NCBI GenBank assembly: GCA_905178155.1
Contig: CAJINV010000025.1
Coordinates: 164,453-228,452, forward strand
DNA from: Amoebophrya sp. A120
Lineage: Eukaryota; Protista; Dinoflagellata
Length of the DNA stretch: 64,000 bases
Direction of reading: 5' to 3'
The first letter of the stretch is position 1; each line of letters begins with the position of its first letter. The notes below the pieces were generated by a model. The model did not search any database and was not told the DNA's origin. It saw only the letters and a list, made by a program, of their open reading frames with translations. Positions 515 through 64,000 of this stretch are shown here, one piece after another. A program made the position numbers and the translations under genes.

Positions 515-1061
515 AACTCGCCATTCACGTTCTACTCTGTTAAGCCGTCTGGTGGCTGGGCTCTTGAAATTTCCATACACGAAACCGTTTTTCTCACCGG
601 TGGCGCCTGTTTGAGCTGCCTGCAGATAGACGACCAAGGCCGCGTGGGTGTGGATTTTCTGAACTACCTATTAAAGTGAAAAATGCTCCCACCCCAGAAC
701 TTGGCAGCGTTTGCATTGCAAACTTTTCTAGTGGAAACATTCCCCGCCTTGCCTATATCAGCATCACAAATTTCCCATGCTGAATAGCTCAAAACTGTGT
801 TGCAAAGGAGCTCAACAGCAGGCGGATCTATTATGCAAAAGATACCTTGCGCGCGTAGATCTAGATTCTGCATCAGAAAGGCTCGCAGTCCTTTCTTGCA
901 AGACAAAAAGCTTTCATTTGGAAACTTTGCATGAGAAACTTTTGCAAGTTCTGGGGTAGGGGCATTTTTCATTGTAATACTACCAGCTTCTACCGCCAGA
1001 CCTCCGCACGGGCCACAAGGTCAGCGGTCTGCAGATGAGTCAGTGGGCGCCAACATGTTGA
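515..1061 (+). CDS. Probable 3' part of a hypothetical protein gene (two exons around introner 669-979)
   Basis: Removing 669-979 plus 5 nt joins ...DDQGRVGVDFLNY to QLLPPDLRTGHK...WAPTC*. 5' end unresolved, no recognised domain. Confidence 0.3.
669..979. mobile_element. Introner, family F
   Basis: TIR TATTA.A.TGAAAAATGC..C.ACCCCAGAACTTG; DR ctacc/ctacc. Confidence 0.9.
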
Positions 1062-1694
1062 GAGCCAACGGAAAGACGAACGGGTGTTGGTGATGTAGAT
1101 GCCGCATGTTGACGTCAAGAGTGGCGGTTCGGCGTGGTAGGCTCTCCACCTGAAATAAAATGTGAGAACGTAGAATAAAAATGTTGACATCGTTGTTTTT
1201 GACTACCAAACCTTACCCGAACAGGAACTGTGTTGCAAAATTTGCTTACTTCGGACGGTTCTCCAAAACGACGAAAGCACGGCACTGCGAAACGACTGTC
1301 GGGGGAGGATTCCTTGCTTTAAGAACTGGCACGACGCTATGTTGGCTGTTGCTCGTCGTGTTCGATCCCGCTGATACTTAAGTGTTCCGTCTCCGCCGTT
1401 GTAAAGTAGTTTAATCTGATGTAAGAGCAAGAAGAAGGAAGAAGGACGGCTAGCGTGCCAGGAGTCGTGCGAGTGAAACCTGGTTTGTTGTGTGGTATCA
1501 TCTTCAGCTTGATGCATCTCTTTGCCATGAGCGAGGGCGTAGTCTGCGTCAACGTGGGGTCGTCATCATCAAGCAGGCTGGACGCAGTTTCGTTTCCGTA
1601 GTGATGCTGAAACGAACACGAACTAGTTCTATACGTAGCGAAAAATCCGCAGCAAACTAGTACCTCTATTTTTGGTTGATTAATTCCTTCTAAT

Positions 1695-3944
1695 ATGGTC
1701 TCGTCTTGCGCTTGCCCCGCACCCGCGGCCGCCTTGCCAAGCGCAGAAGGTGCAAATCCTAATTCCGCTTCGGCATCATCCCGCTCGCCGCAACACGGCG
1801 GCAACAGCACGGCTTCCCTGTGCAACTCGACTCCGCAGCACGAGGACGCCTTTTCCCTCGAACTTGAAAACGAAAACCCGATCGAGAACTCGGCCCGCCC
1901 GCGGAAGCTTTCGGACAAGAAAAAAGCGTGCCTGGTCGAGGGAAACCAATTGCAGAAGTTTCTCGCGGACATTCTGACTGCGAAACAAGGCATATGACAG
2001 TGCACGACTCCCCCTCCTCCTCATTTGGCATGCAAAATGCCTGATTTATATTTACGCCTTGGCCCTTGGCACTCTTTGCATGGCAAGTTCTCGCAGCCCA
2101 AATAGCACTTCTACACTCGTGTTCAAATTTGTCATGCAAAACCTGTATTCTTGCTTACACTTGTATTGCTGTTCATGCAATACAAGTGAGGGGGAGGAGG
2201 AGTTGTGCGCTCTCATAAGGGAGGACCCCACCGCTGCACCGGCCCAACCAGACCGAGACGAAAAGCGCGATTGAGAAAATCCGGACAGCGTTTTTGGTTC
2301 CATCTGCCATGTTGAAGGCGGAAAAGGAAAACGAGATAAATAGCGTCATCTGCGCGGTGGACAATGCGAGCACGTCTTGTACGTCGACCAATCGCTCTAC
2401 AACAAGCGCGTCCTCTTCATCGGAAAACGAAGATGGTGGTCGTGCGAAGGATTCTTCTGCTTGCGGCTCTGCACCTCCTGCTAGATATACCGCCGCCCCG
2501 AGGACTCCCGCTGCAGCAGACTCAACATCTTCAGAGGAACTACAAGTGAAACATCAAAGGAGCGGCCTGCAGTCGCCGGAACAGCTGGCGCAGGTTTATG
2601 GAGAGCTTCCTTTCACGACCGGGGAGCAACTGTATGAGAGTGCACAACTACCCCCCTCCCCCTCATTCATTGTCATGCAGAACCGCAAATCCATTTGGTG
2701 CCCTTTGGCACTGTTTGCATGACAAATTTCGGAAGGCCAAACAGTACTACTTTCGGCCAGTGAACTTGTCATGCACAGGCCCCAGGAGTCCTGGCGTTTG
2801 TATTGCTGTTCATGCCATACAAGTGAGGGGGAGGGGGACTTGTGCACTGTCATAAACTGTTTGGCAGTTACTTCGCCTGTGAGGGTCTCCTCGGAAGCAT
2901 ATTCGCGGACGACGTTTTCTACGATGTCGGCTCTGGCTTTGGCAAAACGGTGCTGCAAGTCTACCTGACCACGCGCGTCCGCAAAGCGGTCGGGATTGAG
3001 CTCGGGGACACGCGACACGAGTTTTCAGTGCTGCTGAAGGACCGGCTGCTGCGTGAGTTGTTCTGTCCAACGAGCGACATCGAATTTAAACAGGGCAAGG
3101 TCGGAGATCACGTCTTGCCCACTGAATCCGGAAAGACCAATACAGCAACGATCCCTCCTGCTGCTTCTCTCCACCAGTTCGCATGCCGAGGCGTGTTTTT
3201 TCGCCACGAGAACATGTTCCACGCCCGGATGTCGGACGCCACCATTGTCTTCTTTTCCAGCTTGATGTTCAGCGATCCGGCCATCGAAAAAATGGCGGCA
3301 AAAATTTTGACCGAGTGTCCCAACTTGCGCTTTTTCGTGCTGCTGAGTGAGCTGCCATTGTCGCTGTGCGCGGCGGGCGTGGGACGGGATGATGCGGGTG
3401 AAAATAAAGCTGAGACCACGACGCGCTGCTTTCCGTATTGGGAAATGGTCAGCTCGCACAACCTATCAACTGCAAAAATGTCTGGGTCTGGAAGAACGCA
3501 AGATTTGTCATGCATACTTCTCATGACCCATGATGCCTGTAATGCATGGCCTAGCATCGCAGACTTTTAGAGGGCCTCCTGATGCACCTTCCGCATGAGA
3601 AATGCCCTGCCCGTGTGCCACAAATTGCACCCCTCTTGCTGGTCATGCAATACAATTTTTTTTAGAGTCCAAAAACAGCATGACAATCTTCCAGACCCAG
3701 ACATATTTGCAATTCATACGACCTAGCGATGGGCTGGTCGGACAAAACGCCAACGCATAGTAAACTAGGACTACAGCCAGTTTATGTGTACAGACCTGTG
3801 AACATAGCGAGGTACCCCGACAACTCGAAAGCTGCTGCTGAAGGCAGCGACAGGCAAAAATTCTTGCTACAACACCTCCAAGGCGACGAAAGCGACGCCA
3901 GCTATGATGCGGACGCTCCTGCTACGCCGAACCCGAATCTGTAG
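1695..3944 (+). CDS. DOT1-like class I SAM-dependent methyltransferase, about 510 aa. Exons 1695-1990, 2221-2632, 2860-3463, 3724-3944
   Basis: Joined frame reads VYGEL...DDVFYDVGSGFGKTVLQVYLTTRVRKAVGIEL...DATIVFFSSLMF...MGWS...PVYVY, the motif order of DOT1-like methyltransferases. Exon lengths sum to 1533 nt (511 codons). Confidence 0.8.
1993..2217. mobile_element. Introner, family B
   Basis: TIR TATGA.AGTGCACAACTCCCCCTCCCCCTCA; DR aggca/aggga. Confidence 0.9.
2633..2854. mobile_element. Introner, family B
   Basis: Family TIRs; DR aactg/aactg. Confidence 0.92.
3464..3718. mobile_element. Introner, family A
   Basis: TIR TATCAA.TGCAAAAATGTCTGGGTCTGGAA; DR caacc/cgacc. Confidence 0.9.
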
Positions 3945-4647: not shown

Positions 4648-7600
4648 ATGTCACTGATAGTTTTCTACGTGCTCAGCACTGCTACAACGACGCTGGTCGT
4701 TCTGGCAGCGGCGCAGGAGGGCCGGGAGCACCGTCCCAGGGACGAAGGAACGAAATCGAATGTGGTCCTCCACAGCGTCGGAGATGCTAGTGCGCGTCGC
4801 GGCCTACGCGGAACAAGGAACGACTACACGATGAAGCGGGCCGCGGCGCATCAAAAGCAGCTGACCTCGAAAGGAAACAAGAACCGCAGAAGCAAAAGTG
4901 GTAGCTCATTCTCCTTATCCACCTTTCTAGCGAAAGAGCGTCAGCGGAGAAATAAAAAGGAAAAGTGCAACTTCGACGAACAGGCGCAGGAGGTTCCTCG
5001 GAGGTTGCCGAAAAGAACAACGGGCGCAGGAGGTTCCTCGGAGGGCCGCGGTAAGAGTAGTGGTGGTGGGGCAACAGCAGACCTGCTTTCATCTTCCTCT
5101 AGTAAAAATAACCGTGGGGATGCTCTTGCTCTTGAAGGTGCAGCTGTTGTGCGGAGTGGGCTCGAGCAAGACCGCGCACTGAAACCCGGGCCTGTTCCGC
5201 TGCCCCCGGGCGGTGGGGAGGAGACGAAAGTTTTTACTGATAGCCGTCAACCAGAACCAACGAGCGCGAAAAAACGAGCCTTCACTGTCGACCACGTTTT
5301 CGAACATCCCTACGGACTCCACAACTGGGGCATCATCTTTCCCGAGGACACGGAGAGTAGAGAAAACTCGTTCGCTGCTACTAGTAGAAGTGCCAGCACC
5401 TCTTCGGACACTAAGCTTGACGTGATGATTCGCGCTCCCCGACGGGACTTTTACAAGTGCGGAAAATCGAACGACGCCGTGCCGAACTACCGTGCGTTTT
5501 TCTGGGACAACAGGAACATCATGAATACAGCGCCAAGAAGTCCAAGTAGTGTTGAAGAAGAAGAGATGAAAAGAAAGCCGCCAAACAAGATCACCATCAA
5601 TACCTGTGCGCAGAAGTGCTTGGAGCTGGGCCCGGGTTGCGAGGCAGTCACGCTGATCGCGCAGGACAGAGGATTCTACTTTGACAACGGCGAAGCTGCA
5701 ACTACACCGAAAACAATGCCCGCAGGGAATATCAACGACTACGAATTCGATAACGCGTTTTGCATGGGCTGCACGAAATTTGTGGACAACAGCCCCTTCG
5801 CAGACGGCATCGCCGACAATCTGAACGGCATTTGGCTCCCCTTTGCCGTCAGGGAGAACGGGTTCGCGAAAACCTTTCAGAAGGTGCAGCTGGAGCTTGG
5901 TCCTGGAGTGATGGAGGAGTACCGCAACGCAGTGACGGGGCGTATACATTGCAAAATTATCGTACTCTCGTGCGGAATTATCGCAGTCATGCATTACAAA
6001 TTTCTTATGCTTATCCTTTCTTGAGGTAAATCCGGATTACAAATTTCACTTCTCATGCTGAGGAACTTTGTGATGCGATTTATATTACGATAGTACGATA
6101 CTTTTGCCATGCATAAAGCGACAATTATCGCAATTGTACAACGCACTCGCGGGAAACGTGTCCCTTCCTTACAGTGCGGACAATTTTCGAATCACCACAC
6201 CCCGTGCGGTGGTGGATAGAAATGCAAGATACCAATCGTCCAGCGCTTCAACACCAACCTCGTCGACGCAGAAGCGGGATTGCGGGAACAAGCGCGTGGA
6301 CCAGGAGTGGGTCGTGCACTACATGCCCTACGGGTCCTGTGTAACTCTGCGGTGGTATATGAGAGTGCACAACTACTCCCACTCCCCCTCATTTGTATGG
6401 CATCAGCAGCATTACAAACACCAGTACAGGTAGCCCCTGTGCGTGACAAGTTCTTCATGCGCCGAGTGTAGTACCGTTTGGATTTCCGGAATTTGTCATG
6501 CACGCGGTGCCACAAGGTAGCTTGCCAACTGGATTCGGGTTTTTGCATGACAAATGAGGGGGAGCAGGGGGGGTTGTGCACTGTCATATGGTACGACCTA
6601 AAGGTCTTGGCCATCTGCGGGGACGAGGAGGAAAAACGAACTGCGGAGCTGGTGTCTGATGGTAACAACATTAACCAGGTTGTTCTGCAAACCTACGCCT
6701 GCAACCGCGCCGCCGCGTTTGCCACGTCCGAGAAGGATTACGGCTGCTATGACCTGCAGCGGGCGAACGTGACGCGGCACTATATGGAATTGCAGCTGGC
6801 GGCGATGTACGACACGTGCCTGGATGGAATTTGGATTGACTACAACCGCCGCCGTGCCGACGACGTAGTGGACATGGTGGTGTCCATTCTGGAGACCATG
6901 TGGCACCGCGACGGGAAAATGCTCAAGTTCGCGGTCCTGCCCGACGGCAACACGCACGACGCGGCAAAGGACATCCGAGAAATCACCAAGTGGGACTCGT
7001 CCCTAAACCTGCGCTGGGTCAACCACGAGCTGTACCACACCTGGACCACGGGCGGGAATAAGAGAAACCCTCTAATCCCCACCTTCCGCGAGAACCTCCC
7101 GATTGCCAGTGCGGTTTCGAATGGTTTGTACTATAAGGTAGCTTGGAACCACTTCAACCCGAGGGTGCAACGGGAATCCTGGGGCGCGGTGGCGAACCTC
7201 GCCGGGGCGTTTCCCTGGCCCTGCGGCGCTTATGGAAACGATTTGACGTGGCTGCAGAAGTTTTACCAGGCTTGCCAAAACACGAATGGGCAAGAAATTG
7301 ACAGCAAAACCGGCCGGAAGAAAATTCCCTGCGTTGGATTGGTGTATCCCCAGTTCTGCGACTGCTACCAAACCCTGCACTTCTGCTGCCACGCGGAGTG
7401 TATGCATTGCAAAAGCATCGTACTCGTGGTACAAATGCATTACAAATTTCCTCAGCATAAGAAATAAAATTTGTACTGCGGATTTAGCCTGAGAACAAGA
7501 TTTGCAATGCATGTTTGCCGATTAATACTAAGAGTACGATACTTTTGCACAGGATATAGTGTAAGCTCGCGGGCGTCGCCGGCGAGTACCCCTGTCTGTC

Positions 7601-7958
7601 TTTCACGAACCAGCTGGCCCAGCACGACAGCCGGTGGCACGCCGACATCGTGCAAGTGGTCACGTGGAACGACTACGGCGAGGGAACGCAAATCGAGCCG
7701 GCAACCCTGCGGTCGAAGGACGCGGACACGCGAAAAGTTTACTACGACAGGGCGGCGAAGAAGTGGAAGTGGAAGCGGGTGTTTCCCTGGATGAGTGTCA
7801 CGTATAAGAACTACAAAAACACGAAGTACCAGAAGTGGCGGCCGTTCGCGGAGAAAAGGGAGAAGACCGGCGGCAGCGTCGGGTTTCTCGTGCAGCTGCG
7901 CGACATGATTAGCCGGAAATTTCCGAAGGATGACGAAGCGAAAAAAACGTACAGGTGA
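4648..7958 (+). CDS. Secreted GH71/GH99-like glycoside hydrolase with long N-terminal extension, about 911 aa. Exons 4648-5942, 6121-6357, 6594-7400, 7562-7958
   Basis: Hydrophobic N-terminus. Motifs VVHYMPY, LDGIWIDY, VYPQFCDCY and QVVTWNDYGEGTQIEP resemble GH71/99-like proteins. Three introner removals keep the frame (2736 nt). Confidence 0.75.
5943..6115. mobile_element. Introner, family C
   Basis: TIR TAT....TGCAAAAGTATCGTACT; DR gggcg/aagcg. Confidence 0.88.
6358..6588. mobile_element. Introner, family B (opposite orientation to 2633)
   Basis: Family TIRs; DR tggta/tggta. Confidence 0.92.
7401..7556. mobile_element. Introner, family C
   Basis: Family TIRs; DR gagtg/tagtg. Confidence 0.9.
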
Positions 7959-8585: not shown

Positions 8586-11500
8586 ATGAGTGCCACGACG
8601 CAGAAGATGCCTTCGCTCCTCCGCTATTTCGTCCACCTCGCCGTGCGCAGCCTGCTGTACCACATGTTACGGCTTGTGCGAAAGGTCGCCGCCGCTACTG
8701 CTGCCACGATTTGTTTGCACCACGACTGGAGGACGGCACGACGAGGCTTCAGTTTGTTCAACTGGCCACTCGGCCCCGCGCTGCTCTTCGTGGGACGGTA
8801 CCGGCTGGCCGTGGCTTCACCAAATACGGGACAGGATCATGATGTTGAATCAGGAGCGGAAGCCACTCTGCTGGACGAGGATGTTCTTGGGGCCACTACC
8901 ACTGATGACGGCGACAACTTGCAGGAGCTGGATATCGTGACAAGGAGCCTTGCAGATGCGAGCGAAACGGATGATCAGTCATCCCCTGGTACTACTGCGG
9001 GGATAATAGCCCAACGACCATCTCTCCAAGCTACCAAGTGGTTTCTCGCGGAGTTTCCGGAGCACATGCAGTCGATTCGCAACATCCCGCTCCCGTGCGA
9101 GTACTTTGGGCACATGTACAGTTTCGAGGTCAGTTTCGCCCAGTTTCTCCGCGACAACAGCGAGCAATTTGTGGTTTCCGACCCGCTCCAAGCGGACTTC
9201 ATCCTCCTCCCCCACTGCATCACGATGGTGTACCACGCGCTGCGCTACCAGCTGGGGTTCAATACGAGGCGGAAAACCTGGGAGGCCCTGGACCTGTCGC
9301 AGCGGGTATCAAGATGAAAAATCCCCCCTCCCCATACTAAAACGGAGATTTGTGTAGCATGAGTTGCTACCGCAAATCATGTCGTCATGCTAGAAGGCCG
9401 AAGATGCGGACTGTAGTGCTGGAAGGCTTGGGAAAGCCTTGCATCTTCAGCATGACAGGAGGCAACTGGAAGTGGGGAACAGCATGACAAATGTGTGCCT
9501 GCAATTCAGCCCAAGACTGCGTCGCGTGGCCTTCTAGCAATACCAGCCGACTTGTGTACTCAAATACAGCATCACGCATTCCGTTTTCGATATGGGGAGG
9601 GGGGATTTTTCTTCACAATAGCGGGAGTACTTGATTCCCATCATCAACTGGGCGAAAGAGCAGGAGTGGTACAACACCTTCGATGCGGTGAGGAACACGA
9701 CGAACGGTTTGAAGTTCGTTATCCCTTTTGCCATGGACAAGGGCCGGGTCGACTACCCCATCGCGTCCAAAGCGAGCGCCGAGTGGCACGCCGTAACGAC
9801 GGTGGGGGATAAAAACTGGCTGCGGAGCGAAGCCGGGCAGAAACTGCTGTTTCTCAAGGCAGCTGCAGCTTCCACGACTTCTTCACGACGGCGCGTAGAC
9901 GAAGATTCCTTTCCCGGTGTTGAGCTCGCGTCACTGTCCGCCGATGAACAAGTGGATACCGTTGCATCTTCCCAAACCATTGAACACCCAGAGTTGCGGA
10001 AGGTAGTGGAGACCGAAACGACCGAAGTAGAACGTGGCAACATCAACGTCGACGATTCTGATCCGCTCGAAGAGGCGATTAAAACCAGCACCCAAACGGT
10101 CGAGAAGCTGCAGCAGAAACACGATGAAAAGTCGGAGGACTATTGGAACACAAACGAGTGGATCGACCCGGTTTTCCACTATCACGAAGAGAAAAAAATT
10201 TTGCGATTTCTGTTGCAAGAACGGAAGAGGAGAAGAGAGACTAAAGGAGTTGCCGTTCACCAGGACCACGTCGAGCCGCAGCAACTCCCCTTCGACCCTT
10301 GTTTTAACCAGACCTCGGTGTCGAAGCGGCCTTTCCTCTACTACGAGCAGGACGTTGTTGTCCCGGTGCCAACCGCGTTCTACTTCACGGAAGAAGCAAA
10401 GGCGACAGAAAATAGTATGCAGTGCAAAAGTCTCGTACTCGTACTAGTTGCGTTTTTATTCATTACAAATCTTTTGCTTAAGGCAAATCCGCATTACAAA
10501 TTTAATCTGTATTAATGCTAAGTCAATTTGTGATGCAATTTATACTAGTACGATGCTTTTGCAATGCATAAATAGAAGCCGGCTTCTCTTCCTCGCCGCC
10601 AGCGTGAACAGCTGCACACGACTATGAAAAGGAAAAATCCCCCCTCCCCATATCAAAAAGGAAATCTGTGATGCTGGATTTGCGTACACAAATCAGATTT
10701 GTATTGCAGGAAGGCACTGCGACCAGATCCCCAGGCTAGCTAGGGGCGTATGGGTCTAGTTGTTCAGCATTGCAAACGGCTGACCTTTAGGCCCAACAGC
10801 ATGCCAAATCGCTTTTCTATAATGCGGCGGAAGCGTCTGCGTTTGTCCTCTATGCAAGACAAATGCGATTTGTGACCTCAAATCAGCAACGCAAATTTTC
10901 GGAAAGATGCCTTTTCGATATAATGGGAGGGGGGATTTTTCCTCTCAATAACGACGGCTGGTGAAGGACGTTGCGAAGGTACTGTTTGAACAGGATTCCG
11001 ACGTCCTCGTCTTGGATAAAACGGTGGAGCGGCATGTTTGGCAGAACTACATGTACGAGACTAAGTACTGTCTGGTTCCTGACGGCTTCAGCTCGGTGTC
11101 CGCGCGATTGTACGAGGTGATTCTCCACGGCTGCGTCCCGGTTCTCGTCACCGACGCGTTCCACGGCGCGTTCGAAAATTCCCTCCCCTGGTATGAGAGT
11201 GCACAACTCCCCCTCCTCCTCATTTGTCATGCAAAATACCAAATCCAAGCGGTACTGCGTGGTACTGTTTGCATGACAGATTCCGGAAGCTGCCCAAGAA
11301 ACAGTACTACACGAACCGCATGAACTTGTCATGCTTAGGCTCCACAGGTGGGGGCGTCTGTACTCCTGTTCATGCAATACAAATGAGAACGAGGGGGACG
11401 AGTTGTGCACTGTTATACGTGGAAAGACTTCGCGGTCTTCATCAATCGGGTGGATCTGCCGTTTATCCTGTGCAAAAGTATCGCACTCGTATTGCAGTCA

Positions 11501-12194
11501 TGCATTACAAATTTTTTTCTCAAGGTAAATACGCATTACAAATTTTATCTCTCATGCTGAGGGAATTTGTCATGCATTTATACGAGTACGACAGGACACT
11601 TTTGCAGTTCATACCGTTTTTGCCGAAACTGCTGAGGGAGGAGATCTCAGTATCCTGAGTAAAAATGTCCCCACACCAGAGTTGTCATGCAAATCTGCAT
11701 GCCAAAAAAGTTTCTCATGCGAAGCCCCATAAGAACCATTTTCTTATCCTGGTGTAATGCTAGAATCAGCATGATATGCTAGATCTGTGATGCTTCGGAA
11801 CTAGCTAAACAGGATTACACTAGAAGGATAAATTTGTCATGCGAAACCACCAGAGGTGGCGGATTTGTCTAGCGGATTCCCCATCTTGACTCTGGGGTGG
11901 GGACGTTTTTGCTCAGGATACTCAGAGGAAGAGTACTTGGAAAAGCACAGAATCATCACGAAGATTCACCCGTATCTGCATGAAGAGACCGGGTTTTTCT
12001 GGCAGGCGTTGTTCAAAGAGTTGCAACTGAAGAAAAGGACTGTTGTGAAAAAAAGAACTATGTCTACGCGAATCTTCACGTCGAGAAATAAATATTCTGC
12101 TCTTGAAACAGTCGTAGATCAGGACGAAGATCATGTAGTTGAGACTGCTCATGGTCCTCCTCTCGAGGAAAAGCAAACCGAATTTTTCAATTAG
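8586..12194 (+). CDS. Exostosin-family glycosyltransferase (GT47), about 711 aa. Exons 8586-9306, 9626-10415, 10576-10622, 10956-11191, 11423-11463, 11619-11650, 11926-12194
   Basis: Motifs YSFEV..FL...SDPLQADFILLP and TKYCLVPDGFSSVSARLYEVILHGCVPVLVTD...LPWKDFAVFI. Six introner removals keep the frame (2136 nt). Confidence 0.85.
9307..9620. mobile_element. Introner, family E
   Basis: TIR TAT......GAAAAATCCCCCCTCCCCATA; DR gcggg/gcggg. Confidence 0.92.
10416..10570. mobile_element. Introner, family C
   Basis: Family TIRs; DR aatag/aatag. Confidence 0.92.
10623..10950. mobile_element. Introner, family E
   Basis: Family TIRs; DR acgac/acgac. Confidence 0.92.
11192..11417. mobile_element. Introner, family B
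   Basis: Family TIRs; DR cctgg/cgtgg. Confidence 0.9.
11464..11613. mobile_element. Introner, family C
   Basis: Family TIRs; DR ccgtt/ccgtt. Confidence 0.92.
11651..11920. mobile_element. Introner, family D
   Basis: TIR TATCCTGAGTAAAAACGTCCCCAC.CCAGAGT; DR ctcag/ctcag. Confidence 0.92.
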
Positions 12195-12801: not shown

Positions 12802-15800
12802 ATGAAGCAACCCGTAGACGCGGATTTCTACGACCCCGAGCAAATGGGAACCAGCAAGCGCCTATGCTTTGCAAACATGTCTGGGTCTCGAAGATTGATG
12901 CAAGATTTCTTCTTCTTGTCACGCTTGCCTCGCATGATTAAGTAAGATTATTCATTGCATAAAATTATAAAACACACGCTTCCACGACGCTACAGCCGTT
13001 CACCTATAGGCCCCCGATGCCCTATCGATAGGGCAACTTCGTATCGGAGGCATCAGCATGCAGGTCGGGCAAAGATGAAATTGAAAAAGTTGCGAGGGCT
13101 TCAGCAAAAAACTTGCGCGGAAGGAAATTTCTCTTCGCCGCGTGCTACGCTGAATAAATTTTGCCTATAGATAGGCCTCTGAGAGCCTATAGTGTATAGG
13201 TTGGCTGGGTTCGTTCACCATGCCATGCAGGATTCGATATTTTTCTCAAAGCTTGACTTTGAAAAAAAAAAATGCAATGAGTTCATGCAAAACGCAATCA
13301 CAGTGGTATAGCCGTTCACCTATAGGCCTCCGAGGGCCTATAGATAGGGCAATCTTGTATCGAAGGCATCAGCATGCAGGTCGGGCAAAGATGAAATTGA
13401 AAAAGTTTCGAGGGCCTCAGCAAAAAACTTGCGCGGAAGGCAAATTTTCTTCGCCGCGTGCTACGCTGAATAAATTTTGCCTATAGATAGGCCTCTGAGA
13501 GCCTATAGGTTGGCTGGGTTCGTTCACCATGCCATGCAGGATTCGATATTTTTCCCAAAGCTTGAGTTGGAAAGAAAAAAGTGCAATGAGTTCATACAAA
13601 ACGCAATCACGGTGGTATAGCCGTTCACCTATAGGCCTCCGAGGGCCTATAGATAGGGCAACTTCGTATCGGAGGCATCAGCCTGCAGGTCGGGCAAAGA
13701 AGAAATTGAAAAAGTTGCGGGGGCTTCAGCAAAAAACTTGCGCGGAAGGCAATTTTTCTTCCCCGCGTGCTACGCTGAATAAATTTTGCCTATAGATAGG
13801 CCTCTGAGAGCCTATAGGTTGGCTGGGTTTGTTCTCCATGCCATGCAGGATTCGATATTTTTCTCAAAGCTTGACTTGGAAAGAAAAAAACGCAGTGAGT
13901 TCATGCAAAACGCAATCACGGTGGTATAGCCGTTCACCTATAGGCCTCCGAGGACCTATAGATAGGGTCACGCGGAGTCGGGCGCGTCAAGATTTAGGTC
14001 GGGCGTAGACAAATGTGAAAAAGTGACGCACTCCACAAAAAAAAGCGCGCATGTAGGGCATTCTTTTTTCGGCGCATGTTGTGCTGGATATTTTTTGCCT
14101 ATAGAGATACCCTTGAGACCCTATAGGCTGGCTCGGTATGGTCTCCTGACCGTGCAGAAAGTGAAAGCAGTAGGAAAATAAAAAATTTTTGGAAGCAAAA
14201 ACCGTATATGCGTGTGCACGATGAAAAGGTCCTTTTTATGTTTGTCATGCAGTAACGCAGTCTGTCATGCAAAATGCGCAAGCAGAAGTAGCTACGCAAA
14301 TGCTTCTCATGCTTGGGTGTGCGTTACACAGGTTCCATCTCGCTTATTCACCACGACCAATCTTCGACCACGGCTAGTACTCCGGATCGCAATCGATGGA
14401 GGGCGGGACCTGCACCGGCGACAGGCGCTACCCAACCAACCAACCAATCAAATATACAAACTTCTAGACCCAGATGGAGATTTGAAATGCATAGCGGCAA
14501 GCGGAGCCCCCACCCGACCTGGGGTTCGTCAAGTACGTGCTGAATTTATGAACTGCAAAAGTATCGTACTCGTATAAATGCATTACAAATTTGCTAAATA
14601 AAATTTGTAATGCGGGTTTGCCTCAAGAAAAAGATTTGTAATGCAAGACTTGCATTCATACGAATACGATACTTTTGCACAGGATAGAATTTTTTCGTTC
14701 CGCCATTGCTTGTCTTCCTCATCATCGCGCTGCTGTGTAACGTATCAACTGCAAATATGATGTCTGGCGTTGGAAAGATCTAAGGTCTGCCATGCTTGGC
14801 TAACATGACACGCAAGTCTGTCATGCGTGTTACCCAAAAAGAAAAACTACCCCACTTTCCTGTCATGCAGAAGCTCGCTTTGTCATGCAAAATAAACAAC
14901 ACTGTAAGCACCGCCAAAACTTGTCATGTTGGGCATTCAATTGAAGAGTCCGCGTCTTTCTCAAGCAGCATCATAAGTTTCCAGACCCAGACACTTCTGC
15001 TTTTGATATAAGGAGTCCAGGTACATCAAGCCTGCGGGCACAATTACGGTGGTGTCGGTGATTGTGGGCGTCTTCGGCGCTGTCGTGTTGTACCTCTTCT
15101 TCGTCGCCAGAAAGCACTATATCCAACGAAAAAAGTGTTACAGTTACACATTTGTAGTGAATTCAGCAACACAAATTTCTCTGCATGAGAGAGAGAGAAC
15201 TTGTAATGCGGAAATCCTACGGCTACCGGAAAACATTTATGAAACGAGGCTCCTATGCATACTTATCCGGCATGACAGAGCTTGTCTGTCCTGCTTGGCC
15301 TGCAAGACAGTGTGTAACTGTATACACTTTTTTCTTGCGATACACTACGCCACGGTCATCGTCCTGTTCGCCGCACTGTTTTACGGCTGCTTTGTCGGGG
15401 AGGGCATGTAATATTATTGGAAGAAATTATGGATCGAGTTGATGTTTCTGTTTGTGGTTCTCCATGTCACTTTGATTTTTCATGCTTGTACTAAGAAGAA
15501 GAAAACTGGTTCCGAGGATAGAATACTGAATTGCTTGAAAAAAAAATCCAACCACCAGATTCAAACACGAGTTGCGGCCACTGTATGCGTATCCGATACA
15601 AAATGATTTAGGGTAATCTGGACCATCAACATCTGGGGATCGAATGTGACTTGTTTTATCAACTCGAACACTGTGATGTAGTTTCTCTTTCTGTTCTCGA
15701 GCACCAGCTGCAGACCGCATGCTCTGAGGTCAGTAGACCCTGGTACATTTTACTTCCCGTAGTTGCATACTCCGATGCGGGCGATGCGCGAGCGCACGGG

Positions 15801-51501: not shown

Positions 51502-52651
51502 GTTGAAATATTCAAACGCTTGTTGAGTACTATCCAGCTATCAGCGGGTGGGGGGTGTTCGTCTTCTTTGTTCCCCTGATGTTCGTTTGATGTTTTTTTT
51601 CCCATTTCCATCCTCTATCTAAGAAACCTTCGCTATTAAGTGTGAACCCCCACTTGTTTCACGAACTCTGAATCATCTTCTAGTACAATAAACCAACTGG
51701 TGCATAACTCACCCAGTCTGAGTCATCGTGTCTTTGATCACGTAATGCCAATAGAAGAAGCCGGCGCAAGCAACTTGAAAATAAACCCAAAGCTGCATGA
51801 AAAGCTGTACCCCAAGCTCAGCAAGCGGCTGGTACTGCTATCCCGAGACTTTCTTTTGCAAAAATCTCTTGATGTTAGAAAGCCAAAGTTGTTCCCCCTG
51901 TCCTTTTCGAGGTTCCGGTTTTTTAGGCCGATGAGCCAGCAGCTTCAGTTTCTTACACGTAAAAAATTTGACAGCTTTTCTTTTTACCCTGACAGTGGGA
52001 AGGTAAAGCAGTAAAGGGACGACAGGAAGGCCGGATTCCGGCCGCAAGTTGTTTCCGGCCGCCGGAAACAACTTGGGGCGCTTGTTGTTCGAAAAATTTA
52101 TCGGTCAAAAAACGTAGCTCCTCATGAGTTCAGGAAAAACATGATCTCTACACGACCCGGTATGTTGCGGCTCCGTGCTGTGGAAGTCAAGAACATCTTC
52201 GGTTTAATCCGCAGCAAGGCGCAGCTCGGTATGTTTATATACAACATGTCGTCGGTCTGTCGAGTTGATTGCGGAGTTTCGGGGAGAGGTAACATCAGCC
52301 TGGCCACAATGCTAGCTGTGATTAGATTTGTAGTCCCTACTTACATTGTACTAGTACAAGTTGTATAAGTTGTGCCACACACTTCCGCAACAAACGACAA
52401 CGTGCTGTAGTGCTTTTGTGCGGCACCGGCACGCGAAGCTGAACTATTGATACAACCATTGTTCATGGTAATTTTTTTTTTCGGACGCCATTCTTCTGAA
52501 TATTTCCAGTTGAGGAGGATTTTTATTTGTTATCCTGAATCAAAATCAATCCAACCCGTACCCGAGGTGATAAGTAGTTGTTTTTCGCTCAAGTGTGGTA
52601 TTTCGATCCCAGCTAAAGCAAACCGATCTAATAGAAGGAATTTCTTTCCGT

Positions 52652-52912: not shown

Positions 52913-52971
52913 CCTGGTTGCTTTCCGCTGGACTGTCGTGGTACTTCGATTCCATCTATCCGAACAGAATC

Positions 52972-53415: not shown

Positions 53416-56400
53416 ATGGCAACGCCCTCGAAGTCTGTCGCAGTGAAGAGAATGTCTGTCCCTTCGTTCACTACAGCTTCGTATGAACTGCAACTGCAAA
53501 TATGATGCCTGAGTCTGGAAACTTCTGATGCTGTTTGGTGAATCTTCATGTGGACGCCTTCATTGACAGCCAAGCATGACAAGTTTTGGAGTTGCTATAG
53601 TGTAGCTGCCTATCTGCATGACAAACTGCGTTTCTGCATGTTGACAGAGAAATCTGGCTTTTGGGTGGCGTGCATGACAGACTTGAGAGCCTGAGCCATG
53701 CTAGCCGTGCATGGCAAGCCTTGCATTCTATCAGACCCAGACCACATATTTGCATGTGATACTTCGTGGTCGGTTTTCCTGGCAAGAACTACATTTTTGT
53801 GGTTTTTCTTGGCGGGAGGTGCTGTCGTGACCGACGTGCGCGCAGTCCTAATGCAACCAGCGGGACAAGGACAAGAGGTAGGAGAACCAAGTCTAGGAGC
53901 ACAAGAAGCAACACGCCCACGATGGCGTTATGGGAATCTCAAACGTTACATTCTCAACTGTTACATGGAATTTGTAAATGCAAGAATGGCAAAAGTGAAA
54001 GTTGCGCCTTTTGAATTACAGGTTTGGAGCAGATTATATATAATGCTATCCAGCGCGGCGTCGAGATCGAGAACTTGTGATGCAAGGAACGCTTGATCGT
54101 GTGCAGAGCGATGGCGTTTTTGCATGACAAATCATGTAACAGTTGCGAATGTAACGTTTGAGAATCCCATAGGCGTTGCTGTAGGCGGCGAAATCTGCCC
54201 GCCGCCGCCGCTTCCGCCACGACGGACAAAGCGGCTGGGGCGGCGCCTCTCCTCGGCGGCGTTGCAGACGGACTGGGAACGGACACGCGCTCCGACGAAG
54301 ACCCCCCCGCGGCGAGCTCTTCCTCCCCCCGCGGCCGCGCCGCGGCGAGAAGTTCCTCCCGGCGCGCACGCGCCGGCTCCGCTTCCGCCTCGACGGGCGA
54401 AGCGGCTGGGGACGCGCCGCAGGCGCCGCCGCGCAGCCGCTCCCGTGGTATATTCAAAACTGGTTTTGAACGCTGTTTCTCATAGATCAAAATACAGAAA
54501 ATGAACAGGACGAGAAGAAAAAGCTACGAAAGCGATCAAGCAAGAAAAGGACCGGAATACCAAGGAAAAGCAAGCAGATTCTTGCTACGATCGAGAAGAA
54601 AAGAAACGGAGAAGAGGAAAAAGAGAAAAGGAAAGAGCTTGAATCCGATTTACGCTGAATCCGAATGAAAAACTGCCTTGTTTCTATATTCAAAGAGCTG
54701 AGCCACGGCTGCGGGCAAGTTAGGAATAGGAAAAGACGCGAAATAGCATAAGAATCTGGGGAAAGCTCGATGATGTTAGGGAATTTGTAATTCGAACCTT
54801 TTGAATTTGATGTAGTTTTAGCGGGTGTTCGAATTGGAACTCGGTAGGCTTGCATTTGAAAAAAAAAATCTTTCCATTTCGAAACTAGGTCCCACACGCT
54901 CCCCCTCCCCGGCGAAAACTTTCTCCCTGCCCGCGCTCGGCGACGCTACTGGTTCACTTCAGCCGCACGGGCTCCATGAATGTGTTGCGGCTTGGGACGG
55001 AAGGACACCAGGGCGAGCTCCCTGCCTGCGGCAGCGGGGCCGACTGCGCGGCGGGCCCCCGCTGCGTTTCCCCTGTTGCAGGCGCCGAGCGATGTACGCG
55101 ACAAGAGCCCTTGCATGCGAGTGGGAAAGGAAGGCGGGGGGCCCCGAACAACACGGGGGCCCCCCGCGAGCAGGTGAAAAAGGTGGAGGGGGCCCCTTGG
55201 GCACCGGTGGTACAGGCCGGGGGCCCCCCGCGCCCGCGCGGGAGAGAAAGGCGGGGGGCCCCCTTGGGCGCCCCCGGCCTCCAAAGGTGGAGGCCGGGGG
55301 CCCCCTGCGGGCGGGGGAGATTTACCGCGGAGAAGGACGGGGCCCCCCCCCGGCCTCCCTCCGGCGGGCGGCCCGGCCGGAAGAAGGGCGGGGGCCCCCT
55401 GCGGAGGCGGAAGCGCGGGGCCCCCTGCGGACGCGGGATACGCAGCGGGCGGTAAGGCGGGAGGCGGGGGCCCCCTGTTTCACCAGGCAGGCGGCCCGGG
55501 AGAAGGTCGGGGGCCCCCTGTGGAGGCGGAAGGGTGGGGGCCCCCTGCGGACGCGGGATACGCAGCGGGTGAGGTGGAGGCGGAAGCGTGGGGGCCCCCT
55601 GCGGAGGCGGGATGCCCCGCGGGCGGGAGGGCGGGAGGCGGGGGCCCCCTGTTTTCCCCGACGGTATGCTGGACGCAAAAATAGTAACCCTCATCGTAGC
55701 GTCGTCCTTACAAGTCTAGGCCTCAGCGCGTACCGGTCTCAAAAAAAATCTTTCCATTTCGAAACTAGGTCCCACACGCTCCCCCTCCCCGGCGAAAACT
55801 TTCTCCCTGCCGCCCGCGTTAAAGAAGGCCTCTTTACGTAGCTAGTTACTTCTTTACAAAAGGACCCAAAAAAGGAGACCTAAGGTTCGGGTGTGAATTT
55901 CTTCACCCAGCTTCTGTTCCCTTCCTTGAGTTGCTGAGGTGTTGAAGTTTACACCTATGCTCGACTGTGCAAGAGGGTTTTTGCCTTACCCCTCTAAGGT
56001 CTCAGGAATCACGCTGCCACACTGTTTCCAAACCCACGCCGACACTACCAAAAAGACTTTTTGATATAGAATGAAAAAGCCACAAAGAAGCATGCTGTAG
56101 GGGGAAGGGAAAAGGCTTGCAGCTACTCAAAAAGCGCGGCCAAGAATATCAGAGGGCTTGCCTGGGGGTAGTTTCTGCATAGATGCCGCGCTCGTGTATT
56201 TTTTATATCGTAGTAAAGACGTAGAAGAGCAAGGGCGCGATTTGGTCGGCAACTGCCCCCTTCTCTGCCTTCCTCCAGCAGCAATACTTCCAAAAAGAGC
56301 CTATGCACAGCCAACATTCCGCCGCGCCCAGCCATGCATGTCGTGGCACTTCGACGTCCCAAAGGTTGCATCTTCAAAACTCACAAGAGTGAAATGAGAT

Positions 56401-59400
56401 TTCCCGACCTTTAGGCTTAGCATTTTAGGCGTGAGGGGCGGGGCAGTGGGCCACTAGGAGGAACAGGTACAGAATCACCACCGAAAATGGGAGTGTGCTG
56501 CAGCCTTCGCGTTACATTACCACGGTTGTCGACTCCCACGCTCAGCTGGGGTGGAGGCAACCCGGTGGTGTGACTAGCTGCGTACTGACCAATGTGAGCA
56601 ACCGTAGCATTGTCGCGAGGAGGAGGGAACAGCAGTCCGGAGACCGGTGGATTCGCAATGCGAGAAGCCGGAGAAGGGGTCAGACCGCAACCTACAGAAC
56701 ACGAATTGGAACCGCGATGAGATGATGATGACGAGCCTGGATCAACACCATTTCCGATCTGAGGTTGTCATTAGATGCATTGCAGTTTTATGTTTGTGCC
56801 TATGTATTTAAAAAAAAAAAAATCTTTCCATTTCGAAACTAGGTCCCACACGCTCCCCCTCCCCGGCGAAAACTTCCTCCCTGCCGCCCGCGCTCGGCGA
56901 CGCCGCTTCCGCCTCGAACGCAGCGGCTGGGTACGCTCTCGGCGGCGCTGGAACTGCGCGAGTTAAGGTGCTGAAGAGTAATGGGCATCAAATGCGAACA
57001 ATATGTCTGGGTCTGGAAGCCTGCAGGATTTGTCATGCATTTCGCGGACGATCATCACGAAAATCGAAATCCATGGCTTGGAATGCAATTGCAAACAGAA
57101 GCATCTTCACAGATTTTGCGAGACCTTCCTCATGCCCATCCCACATGATCAACGTCCTCACAGTGAAGCGGCGGCTTTCTGCTCATCAGATCATGAGAAG
57201 TAGTAGCCTACCGTTTGACTCACTAGCAAGGAAGAAGTATTGAGCTGCTTTTGGCTTTCATGACACGCAGACGGACCTCTACCCTTTTGGTCCCGAGACT
57301 GCGCATGACAACAAGCTGCATCCTTCCAGTTCCAGACAAGTTTGTTGACATGCATAATGCTCCGTTGGGAATTATCCAGTCTCATCTGATGAATGAAGAT
57401 CCGGGTCACTACTTGATGAATCTATTCAAGCTGACGTTTTCCGGCTTGCAGAGTCAGCTGCCCTATCACATGTAAAAATGTCTGGGTCTGTAACAATGCA
57501 ACTTGTGATGCTGCGTCTGCATTATCTAAGAATCTGTATTGCATGAACAGCAAAAGAGGTCTGGTTTCGGCCACGGCGAGAGGGCATTTCTCATGCGTTA
57601 TAGGCATCAGAAAGCCCTCACAAGATCTGTGATGCTAGGGCATGCATCGCAGACATCAGGAGTCATGCAAAATGTGCATGACAAACCTTGCATCCTTCCA
57701 GACCCAGACACTTTTGCATTTTATATGCCCCGGGACGAAACGATGTGGTTTGACAACCGGATGTGCTCGCTTACCGAGATATCCTGAGTAAAAACGTCCC
57801 CACACCAGAGTCAGGATGGGGATTTTGCAACACAAACCTAGGAGTTTTAGGAGTCACGCATGACAAGTTGCACTCCGCAGTGTAGTGCAGGTTAGCAACT
57901 GCAGCCGCATCACAGATTCATCTGCGGATCCTGTTCACAGCATCACAAATTCCAATACACGACTGGAAATGCCTTTCATGGGGATGCGCATTACAAGTCT
58001 TCCTGTCTTTGCAAATCTGCATTACAACTCTGGCGTGGGGACGTTTTTACTCAGGATACGAGATCCGTGACGAGGTATTCGAGTCGTGGAAAACCGCCGA
58101 CTCGAATCGTCCTGGAGTCTGGAAGGTTCCGCGGGTCACGTTGTATCCAGCGGAATTAAGTATGCCTGGGTCTGGAAGGGTGGAACCTGTAATGCTGGTC
58201 TTACATTCCTGTGAATTGAAAGTGAAATCTGTACTGCAGGACCAACAAAAGTAGCCGCGGCCGCCTCTTGTGTCATACAAAGTCGCAGTTTCTCATGTGC
58301 CGGGCTGCGCATGTTGAGAAAGTCTTCTGGAAAGTTGTCATGCTTGGCTGCGTTTTTCGGAAGTGTTTCTATCACCCACACTCTAGCCTCACAAGTTTCC
58401 AGACATCGAGGGATATTTGCAATGCATACGGTGGGCCAGGAGGCCGGGGTCTGGTGGGACCTCTTTTTCCACGACCCGTGGAGCGACGCCCGGGTTTTCA
58501 AGGCAGTGAGCAGAGGGTTTCCCGATTTAACAGCGGGAACCAAAAGCCCGAATGTGATCTCCTCCGCCTTTGCGTCGTTCTTTAAGGAGAAGGTCTTTCC
58601 CCTCTCGAGGAAGTTCATGAGCTTAGCTGATGATGATGAACAGAAAGCCCTAAGTCTCGCCTTTGTAGACGCTTTCGCCGGCGCGCTAGAGCTATCAAGT
58701 TCAAATATGTCTGGGTCAGAAGTTTACGGTTGCAAGGCTTATCTATCGCGCAGCTTTCGCATGACGACCCAGTGCTCCCAGATGGGCTGCGGGCTCTCGT
58801 ATCTTCACATCAAGTTTTGAGAAGGCTCATCCTCGATCATGATGCCTATGTTCAGCATGAGACAACACGTTGTCTCTCTTTGGGTAACCGAACAAAGTGG
58901 GCATGTGTTTTGCTGGCTATGCAACAGTACAGACTTACGTGTCGAGCAGACGAGGCAGACCTAGCATAATGAATAAGTACATTCGGGCTCTACAACTTCC
59001 AGACCCAGATACTATAGTTGCACTGCATAAAGTCGGCCCGGGGCGACGACCAAGCACGCGGTCAGCTTTTGGTCGTCTCAGGTTGATACTGAGTACGGCG
59101 GGAAAGTTGAGAACAAGTTTGAGGTTTCCTACGGTGGAAGATCCGGCCTCCCACGAGAGCAGCTCACGACTTTCAAGCCTCACTATGGTGGCGCAGAGCA
59201 TCTAGATGGCGTCGCTATGATTAAACCAGAAATCCCCCTGAAGAAATACATGCTTCTCGGAAAACGAGTCAAGGAGGGGGCCAGGGCCACTAGATTGAAT
59301 AACTCACAGGGTGCTGGGGCTTCAACTGTGCTAGTGTTTCACTACACGACATGTCCGCGCCTCTCTCCAGGCCGTAGGCTAAGCATGACGAGCTCCATTC

Positions 59401-60047: not shown

Positions 60048-60539
60048 GATTTTCTTGACAAGCTTCCCTGCTCTAAAAAGTGCATCGCTTCCTTTTCTTT
60101 ATCCTTTTCAGAAATCGAGCTTTCCAACGCGAAAACGCTACATGACCCCACAGCTCGACCAAAGAAGCGATAGAACAAGAGCGCTAACAAGAAGACGACT
60201 TAGACTAGTGAAAGAACAGGAAGTTGCGCAGGAAAGTAAGACAACGATTAACAGCAGGGATAGGGAAGACGGTCCATGAATTGATTGAGTTCGTTGAGCA
60301 TTTTACTTTTGACAAAAAAGATCCATCAAAAATGAAAATGGTCACCCCTTTCAGTTGATATGCCGACAGTGCGTCGAGAATCTGATGAAGAAATAAAAGA
60401 ATGGCGCGCCAGGCTACAAAGTACTTATTGTTATTTACAAAAGAACGAAATAAAAGTAAAACCAAACAGGGTAGAATTTTCTTTCGTCATCTCTCCGGCC
60501 AAAGCGACGCCGGTATTTTCTTTCGTCAGTATCTTTTTC

Positions 60540-61370
60540 ACCGCTTCGGCCCGAGCAACGCCGGGGGCGCGGGTATTAAAAAGAGCCGGCCCCCTTACGC
60601 GTGTAGCCTTTGGGCCGTGGCACTTCGGCGGCGCGAAAATCCCGGGAAAAAAAAAGAAAGGCGCCGCCCCCGCCGTAGGTTGCAGGTACGCGAAAGCGCT
60701 GCGGAGCTGCCGCCGCAGCGCCGAAGCGCCATGGCTGCCCGTAGAAATTTTTCTTTTTTCTCTATTCACTTCGGCCCGAGCTTCGCCGGGGGCGCGAGCA
60801 TTAAAAATAAAGCGCTGGCCCGCCCCCTATGCGTGTAACACTCTGGTCGCGAAACTCCGAAGGCGCGAAAATGTTGAAAAAAAAAAGGCGCCGCCGGCAT
60901 AGCCACTAGGCAGGCGCAAGCGCCGGGGGGCATGCAAGTACGTAGCCGCCGCGGCCCCCCCCAAACTAACACCACCCAACGAATCCCGACGAAATTTATC
61001 TTCTCCACCTTCGGCCCGAGCTTCGCCGGGGGCGCGGGTATTAAAAAAAAGCCCCGGCCCCCGTACGTGTGTAACCCTTGGGCCCCCACGGGGCGCGAAA
61101 ACCTAAAAAAAAAAAAGGCGCCGCCGGCATAGCCACTAGGCAAGCGCAAGCGCTGCGGGGCATGTAAGTAGCCGCCGCAGCCCCCAAACTGACACCATCC
61201 AAGCAAACCCAGTGAAATTTATCTTCTTCACCACTTCGGCCCGAGCTTCGCCGGGGGCGCGGGTATTAATTAAAAAAAAGCGCCGGCCCCCGCACGCGTG
61301 TAACCCTTGGGCCGCGACACTCCGGAGGCGCGGAAATCTCCAAGAAAAAAAGAAAGGCGTCGCCCCGGGA
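60540..61370. repeat. GC-rich tandem repeat, 225-240-bp unit, about 4 copies
   Basis: CTTCGGCCCGAGC(TT/AA)CGCCGGGGGCGCG recurs at about 60544, 60769, 61009 and 61234. Confidence 0.85.
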
Positions 61371-62066: not shown

Positions 62067-62837
62067 GCTATGAGTGGTTATGAGTTAAGTATCGAGTTCC
62101 CGCCGTGGGCCTTGGCCTTCTTCGCATCAAGGTTGTGTGTTCCGTAAGAATGAAAAAAGTCAGTTGTTCTTTCATCTCAAGAAATTCCCAGATAGTGTTG
62201 TTGAAGCTGTTGACTGAGCCTGCGAACTTATCAACACTCTTATTGCAAGGAAAAATTTTCCCTCCTCAACCTCATGTTGAAAACGTAAACGTATGCGTCT
62301 GAAAATTTGTGATGGAGATTTCGACGAATCAAACGTCTTCTTTTGAATAAAGTCTAGGTGTGATTGAAGAAGAGCAGCTTCTTCACGGAGAGAGAAGATC
62401 AAGATGAAAATTTTCACGATTTGGTTTTGTCCTCCATGTGTCGGGAGCACCACAGCGGTGGGCGATAGAACGTTATTGTCGTCCTGTGTTCCTGTTCCGG
62501 CCTGAATCTGAGTTACTCTTCTGTTACGCATTGTATGTTATGCAAATTCACTGCAACGCAGTTACAACCAGAGAAGCACGACAACGAACCAGGAAAAATT
62601 GACACGAGAAGGAATTTTGGTTGGTCAGCGATGCACATCAAGAACATTTCCGGTGTCGTGTTTTTTGTCAATGCTACCAAAAGTGGAAAAGCTGCGTTTT
62701 CGGTGGCAGAAAGCCTAATATTTCGCTCAGCTTCCGCCAGCACAAGAACCGTATACAGATAAATGGATGCTTGAAAATCAAAATCAGTGGACTGTAGGTG
62801 ATCACGACCATGATATCGAGGAACGCATAGATAAAAG

Positions 62838-64000
62838 ATGGATCTCAATGCGGAAGCGGTTCGCTGGTTGGCTGCCACCACCTCCGGCAGTGATGGTGGA
62901 ACGAGAAACAGTAATTATGGTGCGCCAACGACAGCTGCAAATAAAAGAGCATCTGCTGAAATGAATTCCACGCGTCGCGACAGCACGACAACGCTGTTAA
63001 ACAACAACCCCCTTCCCGCTTTTCAGCTGCTGCACCGCGCGTTGAAGCAAGGCATTGTGTACGCATTGCAAATTAATAAGTATGCCGAAGTCTGGAGTAG
63101 ACAAAAATCTGTGTTGCATGGACGGAAAAAGTTGCCTAGCACTTCTAGTAACGCAGAGGGCGAATTTCTCATGCGGAATAGGCACTAAGGCGCTCTTGCG
63201 CAATCTGTGATGCTTGTGGTCGCATTACAAACCAACTTTGTTTTCCACGAGATGCATTGCATTCTTCCAGACCGAGACATTATTTGTTTTTGATATCGTG
63301 GAGAAAGACCTGTTTTTGTTAGCGGAGACCTGGGCGAACCTCGGGCTGGCGTATCGCAAGTTGCAGCAGCACGAGATATACCCAGTGCAAAAGTCTCGTA
63401 CTCCGACGTAGTCGTACTCGTACAAATTACAGTGATGGAGGAGCACGACAAATTTCTCTTCCTGACGAGCTAAATCAAGAACGTGACAATTTTTGAACTT
63501 CCATTGATTTGTAAATGCAATTCCATTTGATGTAATGCTAATGTTGAGAAAATTTGTAGTGTACTATGCAGTTGGTACTCGCTGCACGATAGTACTTTTG
63601 CATTGCATAGTGTGTTGCAGAATGTTTCCGAGTTCGGCACCTCCTCTCCCGTCCACGACCAGCAACAGCTGCAGGATTTATCCACTGCAAAAGTGTGTGG
63701 GTCTGGAAACTTGTGATGCAAGTCAGGGAAAAATGCGTATACTGGAATGCACTGCCAAGCATGACAAGTTTTTCCGTGGTTCAGAGTTGCGTACTCCGCA
63801 TGAGAAACTGCGTTTTTGCATGACAGGGAAGAGAAGCCCTTTGCGGTCACGCAATACTGAGCTCACAGTCATGCCGGACTAGCATGACAAATCCCGGAAT
63901 CTTGGAGACCCAGACATTTTTGCATTTGATAGGATTTGGCCATTTACAATCTGCAGCTTTCCGCCAGCCTGCTCAGACGGGTTTTGGACCACGACAACGA
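62838..64000 (+). CDS. 5' part of a protein with a TPR-like helix pair; runs off the window
   Basis: MDLNAEAV...KQGIV/EKDLFLLAETWANLGLAYRKLQQHEI joined across introners 63060, ~63378 and 63679. Confidence 0.5.
63060..63295. mobile_element. Introner, family A (degenerate)
   Basis: DR ttgtg/tcgtg; frame kept. Confidence 0.8.
63379..63609. mobile_element. Introner, family C variant (left end 63377 or 63379)
   Basis: TGCAAAAGT.TCGT inverted pair; DR decayed. Confidence 0.75.
63679..63931. mobile_element. Introner, family A
   Basis: Family TIRs; DR ggatt/ggatt. Confidence 0.92.

Follow-up and report, generated by a model that had tools for sequence, protein, structure and literature searches.

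The stretch analyzed in this study, the window, comprises 64,000 nucleotides of contig CAJINV010000025.1 of the dinoflagellate Amoebophrya sp. A120, and carries a large set of short elements that start with TAT, end with ATA, have terminal inverted repeats (TIRs), and lie between direct repeats of 5 nt. Inverted-repeat scans with manual pairing yielded 82 such elements between positions 669 and 63931, together 37% of the window; a decayed element at 50751-51075, a relic around positions 28662-28785, and three orphan ends (32100, 35128, and 47424) bring the total to about 85. One exon of the CFAP298 gene and one further exon are 100% identical to proteins named Amoebophrya sp. A120, and the elements are almost certainly the introners published for this organism. 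The set and the genes and regions that it interrupts are the following.

669-63931, plus strand (the strand of all modelled host genes): 82 TAT…ATA TIR elements with 5-nt flanking repeats
1695-3944, plus: DOT1-like gene, 3 elements, 510 aa; frame continuity only
4648-7958, plus: GH71/99-like gene, 3 elements, 911 aa; frame continuity only
8586-12194, plus: GT47-domain gene, 6 elements, 711 aa once these are removed; frame continuity only
18992-25483, plus: low-complexity open reading frame (ORF) of 1139 aa over 13 elements
21492-22023, plus: tandem element pair sharing the middle copy of the 5-nt repeat
23342-25703, plus: region of the spliced X1 contig, five elements skipped, gaps equal to element+5 in sum
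42862-47997, plus: CFAP298 gene, 11 elements and 2 GT-AG introns; protein comparison, 11th junction unverified
44067-44215, plus: canonical intron starting with GTAC and ending with ACAG
44768-44917, plus: canonical intron starting with GTAC and ending with ACAG
49512-51502, plus: gene of protein P0003 (183 aa), 5 elements and an old element

A first-pass annotation of this DNA listed about 85 elements of mostly 114-380 bp, nearly all with TAT and ATA ends and 5-nt direct repeats, and the catalogue bears this out: 78 of the 82 are 114-382 bp long, 77 start with TAT, 76 end with ATA, and the flanking repeat is exact in 52 and identical at 4 or more of its 5 positions in 71. Exact flanking repeats of 4 or 6-10 nt do not occur among the 82 elements, and mean flank identity is 0.88 at 5 nt vs 0.22-0.32 at other lengths. 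Most repeats were also correctly said to lack GT-AG at any register, which is possible in one element of 82, as is GC-AG in five; U2-type ends, GT(GC)-AG, are thus available to 6/82.

The scans were anchored on TAT/ATA and in part on the 5-nt repeat and were supplemented by hand pairing, and the catalogue is biased because of this seeding. In a motif-free inverted-repeat scan, most arm ends lie at TAT and ATA already. TAT..ATA pairs with at least 16/24 arm complementarity number 64 in the window, and an exact 5-nt repeat flanks 38 of these, vs 0-4 pairs and no such repeat in 20 local shuffles. A less biased complement is provided by a second assembly, obtained by a pattern scan of metagenome contigs (181 stretches, the 80 listed all being on contigs with the prefix JACKZZ01; 172 loci and 611 kb analyzed), whose elements are 68-97% identical to those of the window. 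There an unanchored scan gave an exact 5-nt repeat for 229 of 325 arm pairs, vs 11 for 6 nt. With a query lacking the terminal 3 nt, TAT..ATA was recovered in 313 of 342 unique elements and an exact 5-nt repeat in 274, the pairing score of this search having included the repeat.

The first-pass annotation had further proposed about 12 families with unrelated TIRs. This does not hold, as the element ends share the TIR consensus TAT-S-N4-G-N-AAAA and an internal motif is common to nearly all of them; clustered over their whole length, the elements fall into 20-27 groups, of which 6-8 are multi-copy. The commonest TIR pattern had no match in viral contigs. The motif, TTGTNWTGC, is present in 186 copies, in both orientations, in the 23.7 kb of element DNA (75/82 elements), and in 13 copies in the remaining 40.3 kb, at least 7 of these in canonical introns or the relic. 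The terminal arms pair in the in silico fold of 74 of 78 elements, with stem z-scores from -0.4 to -19 (below -2 in 16/19). Being short, bounded by TIRs, flanked by a fixed target-site duplication (TSD), and without coding capacity, the elements resemble miniature inverted-repeat transposable elements (MITEs).

The internal motif also occurs inside canonical introns, at 44099, 44834, 50827, 51037, and 16522, hinting that some of these introns are old introners.

Length and splice register of the introns

The introns are very probably removed as element+5. The 1349-nt contig of run X1 spans five elements with two gaps, of 51 and 183 nt, that correspond to element+5 over two and three elements, respectively; offset 5 alone fits among uniform offsets of 0-9, in line with the first-pass prediction that intron length minus element length is 5. 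The same offset is uniquely best at all 9 junctions covered when the CFAP298 gene (elements at 42926, 43213, 43501, 43732, 44367, 44605, 44980, 45191, 45396, 45693, and 46074) is compared with P0002, a transcriptome-derived CFAP298 ortholog of 84% identity, and at all 10 covered in the comparison with P0001. Of the 11 junctions claimed for this gene at first pass, the last is unverified, since its element (46074-47924) carries a nested insert into which P0001 reads and the Pfam match of P0001 ends at profile position 82 of 97. The 23-aa piece following this element gave no Pfam hit.

For the GT47, DOT1, and GH71 genes, and for the 1139-aa gene outside the X1 contig, frame continuity fixes the offset only as 2 modulo 3, and offsets 5, 2, and 8 each leave 66 elements within ORFs. 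Thus the proposal of element+5 for the GT47, DOT1-like, and GH71/99-like genes stands as regards the continuous frame, which offsets 2 and 8 fit equally. Likewise, among the decayed repeats for which element+5 had been claimed, 44367 and 45191 are supported by the ortholog, whereas at 20375 the frame cannot separate 5 from 2 or 8. Element+2 (or +8), which the published N-T donors and A-N acceptors would suggest, is ruled out by the contig arithmetic together with the ortholog. The raw-read runs X8 and X9 gave partial matches to repeats only and no exon coverage.

The tandem elements at 21492-22023 belong to two different families and have a single middle repeat copy in common, and a piece of run X1 begins at 22023 with no other letters. 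Because the +5 rule applied to the shared copy leaves a zero-length exon, removal of the pair would need recursive splicing through such an exon or one composite cut.

Where the two copies of a repeat differ, the protein residue tells which copy is kept in the mRNA. The elements informative in this respect, and two others with GT-AG ends, are listed below.

44367-44548, plus: decayed repeat TGCGA/TCCCC; a conserved Arg (P0001, P0002) requires at least 4 left-copy nt in the mRNA
44605-44718, plus: 114-bp element, decayed repeat TCGAT/TCATC; a conserved Asp requires at least 4 left nt
45191-45345, plus: decayed repeat GCAAG/GCCGG; the Lys of both proteins requires at least 4 left nt
63379-63609, plus: decayed repeat AGATA/GTGTG; for Met100 of P0004, position 5 has to be that of the right copy, which limits the left copy to at most 4 nt
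14743-15008, plus: decayed element with GT-AG ends exactly at 1+4, supplied by its flanks
50751-51075, plus: old decayed TAT…ATA element, repeat AAGGG/ACAGC, GT-AG intron at 1+4 (P0003)

P0001 allows 4 or 5 left nt, its lower bound being set by residues R139, D156, and K204, all present in P0002 too; P0003 allows 3-5, and P0004, an unnamed protein that shows full identity to the window along 142 residues and is presumably from the same transcript-based set of gene models as that of Farhat 2021, allows 3 or 4. Since only 4 left nt fits all three proteins, the intron would consist of 1 base, the element, and 4 bases (the 1+4 register), a placement of the cuts that the decayed repeats make probable. 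At this register, the donor is N-U-A-Y in 81/82 elements, and all three protein-verified canonical introns begin with GTAY (GTAC, GTAC, and GTAT). Candidates for further signals are an invariant A at -7 and a run of U at -15 to -19. Homologs of the 30641 gene, which bear on position 5 at 31059, were sought and none were found.

Among 297 oriented elements, the first T at the 5′ end deviates once (an uncertain call, at 56986) and the matching last A at the 3′ end nine times (p=0.02); the deviations at TIR position 2 are 3 vs 5 and at position 3 are 8 vs 2. This count excludes window elements with a repeat below 3/5, the element at 24934, and loci with a repeat below 4/5 or without confident orientation; 233 of the 342 locus elements were oriented, and of the 71 window elements with a confident call, the orienter assigned 4 to the minus strand. 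Since a transposase is expected to treat both ends alike, we read the asymmetry as a splicing constraint. With the register placing this T at intron position +2, the first-pass view of an excision measured from the stem instead of from sequence is not supported as it stands, and both the stem and the U at +2 are likely used.

The phase distribution at the 1+4 register is biased, with phase 0 in 23 of 49 window elements and in 113 of 233 oriented locus elements. Tests of AT drift, AG gain, and stop codons on decayed repeats were uninformative; the sole stop-codon case, in locus L007, has slipped boundaries and was dropped.

The diversity of annotated splice sites in A120 is likely an aligner artefact. 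A perfect repeat has six registers that are equivalent, and a simulation selecting the most GT-AG-like of them reproduces the full A120 fam1 dinucleotide table (n=1322) with r=0.96 for donors and 0.92 for acceptors (N-T donors 0.70 vs 0.67 and A-N acceptors 0.66 vs 0.65), a better fit than that of element+2 or any fixed register tried. Because tie-breaking reproduces this table, we attribute the diversity to the alignment of a fixed 5-bp repeat; reading the register from annotated dinucleotides was discarded for the same reason.

Comparison with known systems

The comparisons below refer to the passages and tables of the cited papers that were covered. The introner class, its TAT start, and the 5-bp repeat are already published, since Farhat 2021 (PMC7789003) and Gozashti 2025 (PMC12130899) give them; the first-pass annotation, too, had recognized the class as known. 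According to Farhat 2021, A120 inverted repeats start with TAT followed by seven looser bases and a run of A, and the introners are about 240 nt long, with direct repeats that measure 3-5 nt (given as 5 bp in the Fig. S19 legend); their splice positions are described as variable or unknown, and general mobilization by a transposase is argued against. The gene models of that study were built from transcript alignments, and A120 was found to possess spliceosome proteins and U2, U4, U5, and U6, while U1 was not detected (PMC7789003). The window agrees in organism (by protein identity), in the motif of TAT, 7 nt, and at least 3 A, which matches its TIR logo, in the boundary repeat, and in family-repeated copies spliced from transcripts without GT-AG. 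It differs in that the repeat is uniformly 5 nt and one register fits. By contrast, Amoebophrya sp. ex Karlodinium has mostly GT-AG introns and a U1 (PMC12005148).

In Gozashti 2025, most A120 families consist of DNA elements with TIRs, 150-320 bp in length, and fam38 is labelled "Ginger; 5-bp TSD, TA/TA Termini"; for the remaining families the automated TSD calls lie between 2 and 11 or are not available, and some families are classified as non-LTR or unknown (PMC12130899). Neither a common rule nor a splice register is given in the covered rows (56 of 58 for A120 and 30 of 60 for A25 in supplementary file 8) and passages. Fam38 is about 810 bp long with Copia/Gypsy-like ORF homology, features that were not found in the window. 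Neither the 1+4 register nor the artefact explanation was found in the covered parts of the Amoebophrya introner literature, including PMC12787238 and PMC13326754, with Gozashti files 13 and 14 outside this scope; the internal motif was likewise not found in the literature examined, in which no search was aimed at the motif letters. The system is known, and the sharper 1+4 rule is probably new.

The nonconventional intron code of euglenids is the closest functional analogue: those introns, too, have a terminal stem, TSD-like repeats, and fixed stem spacers, and lack GT-AG (PMC12501133; PMC11282704). However, their core is CAG/CTG, their spacers measure 3 and 5-6, and the exon begins with a purine, whereas the window has TAT/ATA, spacers of 1 and 4, and no preference on the exon side; the window elements do not show the euglenid signature N3-CDG…CH′G-N5-6, and the lineages are unrelated. 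The non-canonical introns of Fritillaria are MITE-derived, non-GT-AG, present at the genome scale, and processed by an altered spliceosome, but fall into a few prevalent classes (AG-AC, AG-AT), while the acceptor in the window is unconstrained (PMC11282704).

The Ginger2/TDD transposons have in common with the window TIRs and an integrase-type stagger, and TDD-4 and TDD-5 make 5-bp TSDs (PMC2836005), so that in TSD length the window fits TDD only. They differ in TGTNR termini, mostly 4-bp TSDs, and a target preference (PMC2836005), against TAT termini, a free target, and no transposase seen in the window. Since Ginger1 and Ginger2 termini are TGTNR and the window has TAT in 77/82, we do not assign the elements to Ginger, though a 5-bp stagger would suit a TDD-4/5-like integrase.

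Proposed excision and mobilization

Taken as a whole, the explanation that we favor, with reservations, is that published A120 introners, MITE-like and flanked by a 5-bp duplication, are removed as element+5, likely by a modified spliceosome at 1+4. This spliceosome would make its 5′ cut 1 nt ahead of TAT and its 3′ cut 4 nt past ATA. The stem could draw the intron ends together and replace site selection by U1/U2AF, the U at +2 and the A at +3 of the TIR could be a remnant donor, and the 3′ cut may be fixed by its distance from the stem, with an acceptor devoid of sequence signal. Spliceosomal chemistry itself is somewhat better than an even bet. As for mobilization, one integrase-type transposase might act in trans with a 5-bp stagger, recognizing the TIR consensus and the internal TTGTNWTGC repeats; a single mobilizer is favored because the TIR consensus, internal motif, and arm pairing are shared across families. 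To this extent, the evidence favors the first-pass proposal of one transposase superfamily, which is still an inference, and an integrase-type mover has about even chances.

In a more speculative extension, somewhat less likely than not, the introners of A120, which number tens of thousands, might without exception follow one code, N/UAY…stem…AUA-N4/, read by a U1-less spliceosome that takes its donor from the TIR bases at +2/+3 and its acceptor purely from the 4-nt distance to the stem. One undescribed integrase-type transposase (5-bp stagger, TA termini) would be matched to it, so that insertions are scarless introns at birth, and old copies would turn into GT-AG introns with the junction unmoved. 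Amoebophrya splices introns of which more than 60% are non-canonical, with no U1 detected, and a single 1+4 register, if true, would replace "no clear splicing signature" by a precise, checkable code. It would also account for the published variability, name the bases to mutate, suggest a path from transposon to ordinary intron, and permit mechanical repair of gene models in the A120 genome.

Several observations weigh against this explanation. That run X1 is RNA is a guess, the hint given by the contig edge at 24540 is ambiguous because the alignment tolerates mismatches, and P0001, P0003, and P0004 represent gene models instead of reads. The upper bound on the register (not 5) is a single residue of one unnamed gene model, P0004, and the tie-break result makes annotated dinucleotides uninformative and selects no register. 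The asymmetry of the first T is modest, concerns one of three terminal positions, is uncorrected, and equally fits a cut directly before TAT. G at +1 is not enriched beyond composition; AG at the acceptor (23/233) is at chance expectation, with no acceptor preference; and AG was gained in the right copy of 5 decayed cases and lost in 3, with no clear trend. Finally, in line with the first-pass statement that the window has no transposase, none of the 180 window ORFs of at least 100 aa (180/180) has a transposase domain, and none was found in long elements of the 611 kb of related loci. The longest candidate in the window and these loci, L025 (1104 bp), contains low-complexity ORFs only.

The absence of an acceptor signal and the free base at +1 would also be expected if the same elements were removed, again as element+5, by a separate, non-spliceosomal machine measuring spacers from the stem, in the way suggested for the nonconventional introns of euglenids; this corresponds to the first-pass version. 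Such a machine agrees with the undetected U1 of A120 (PMC7789003), with the fixed stem spacers N3 and N5-6 of Euglena (PMC12501133), and with Euglena introns yielding circles, not lariats (PMC11282704). However, T1 is conserved specifically at the 5′ end, the outer pair being broken nine times on the 3′ side, the donor resembles the local canonical GTAY, and two old copies are GT-AG at the same register; we consider this machine unlikely, while giving it more weight than the other alternatives.

Distinctly less probable is a cut that slides within the repeat, the total always being element+5 with no single register. Farhat 2021 draws splice sites variable relative to the hairpin (PMC7789003), and the 52/82 perfect repeats mask the register, for which only one junction gives an upper bound; nevertheless, a single register suits every decayed junction in three proteins, and aligner tie-breaking alone yields the published variability. 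Removal from DNA, by programmed excision or as empty alleles, is very improbable despite the DNA-transposon anatomy of TIRs and target duplication and the guessed nature of X1, as long X5 pieces among the matches listed (2408 further joints) pass from exon into element while X1 skips the elements, and Farhat 2021 validated introns by RNA-seq against the assembly (PMC7789003).

Nested inserts and other repeats

The last CFAP298 element contains, at 46336-47885, an insert of 1.5 kb that ends in poly-A and has a target duplication of 15 bp. It encloses a GC-rich ORF of 288 codons (46559-47422) of no known family, for which neither a PDB match nor a Pfam hit below E 0.07 was obtained, and includes a TAT element's left part together with a tail that recurs at 39300-39545. 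The insert has the appearance of a chimera that arose by retroposition of an unspliced transcript. Element 38965-39613 holds a related poly-A-tailed insert (39145-39530), situated at an internal motif of similar type, and another lies in locus L074 (positions 84-275), which suggests that introners serve as a safe haven targeted by a retroelement.

A second kind of repeat, with GC-rich internal repeats, occurs at 29055-29985 and 41091-41860 in copies 74% identical to each other. The former is flanked by 61-bp direct repeats, and the latter lies inside element 40827-41986. Nested within element 12863-14493 is a tandem satellite (12983-14157) with a unit of about 310 bp. Finally, the element-poor intergenic DNA at 54450-56950 and 60480-61370 contains GC-rich tandem repeats and a block of about 80 bp repeated thrice, and the segment 54452-54896 matches locus L033 of the second assembly at 80%.

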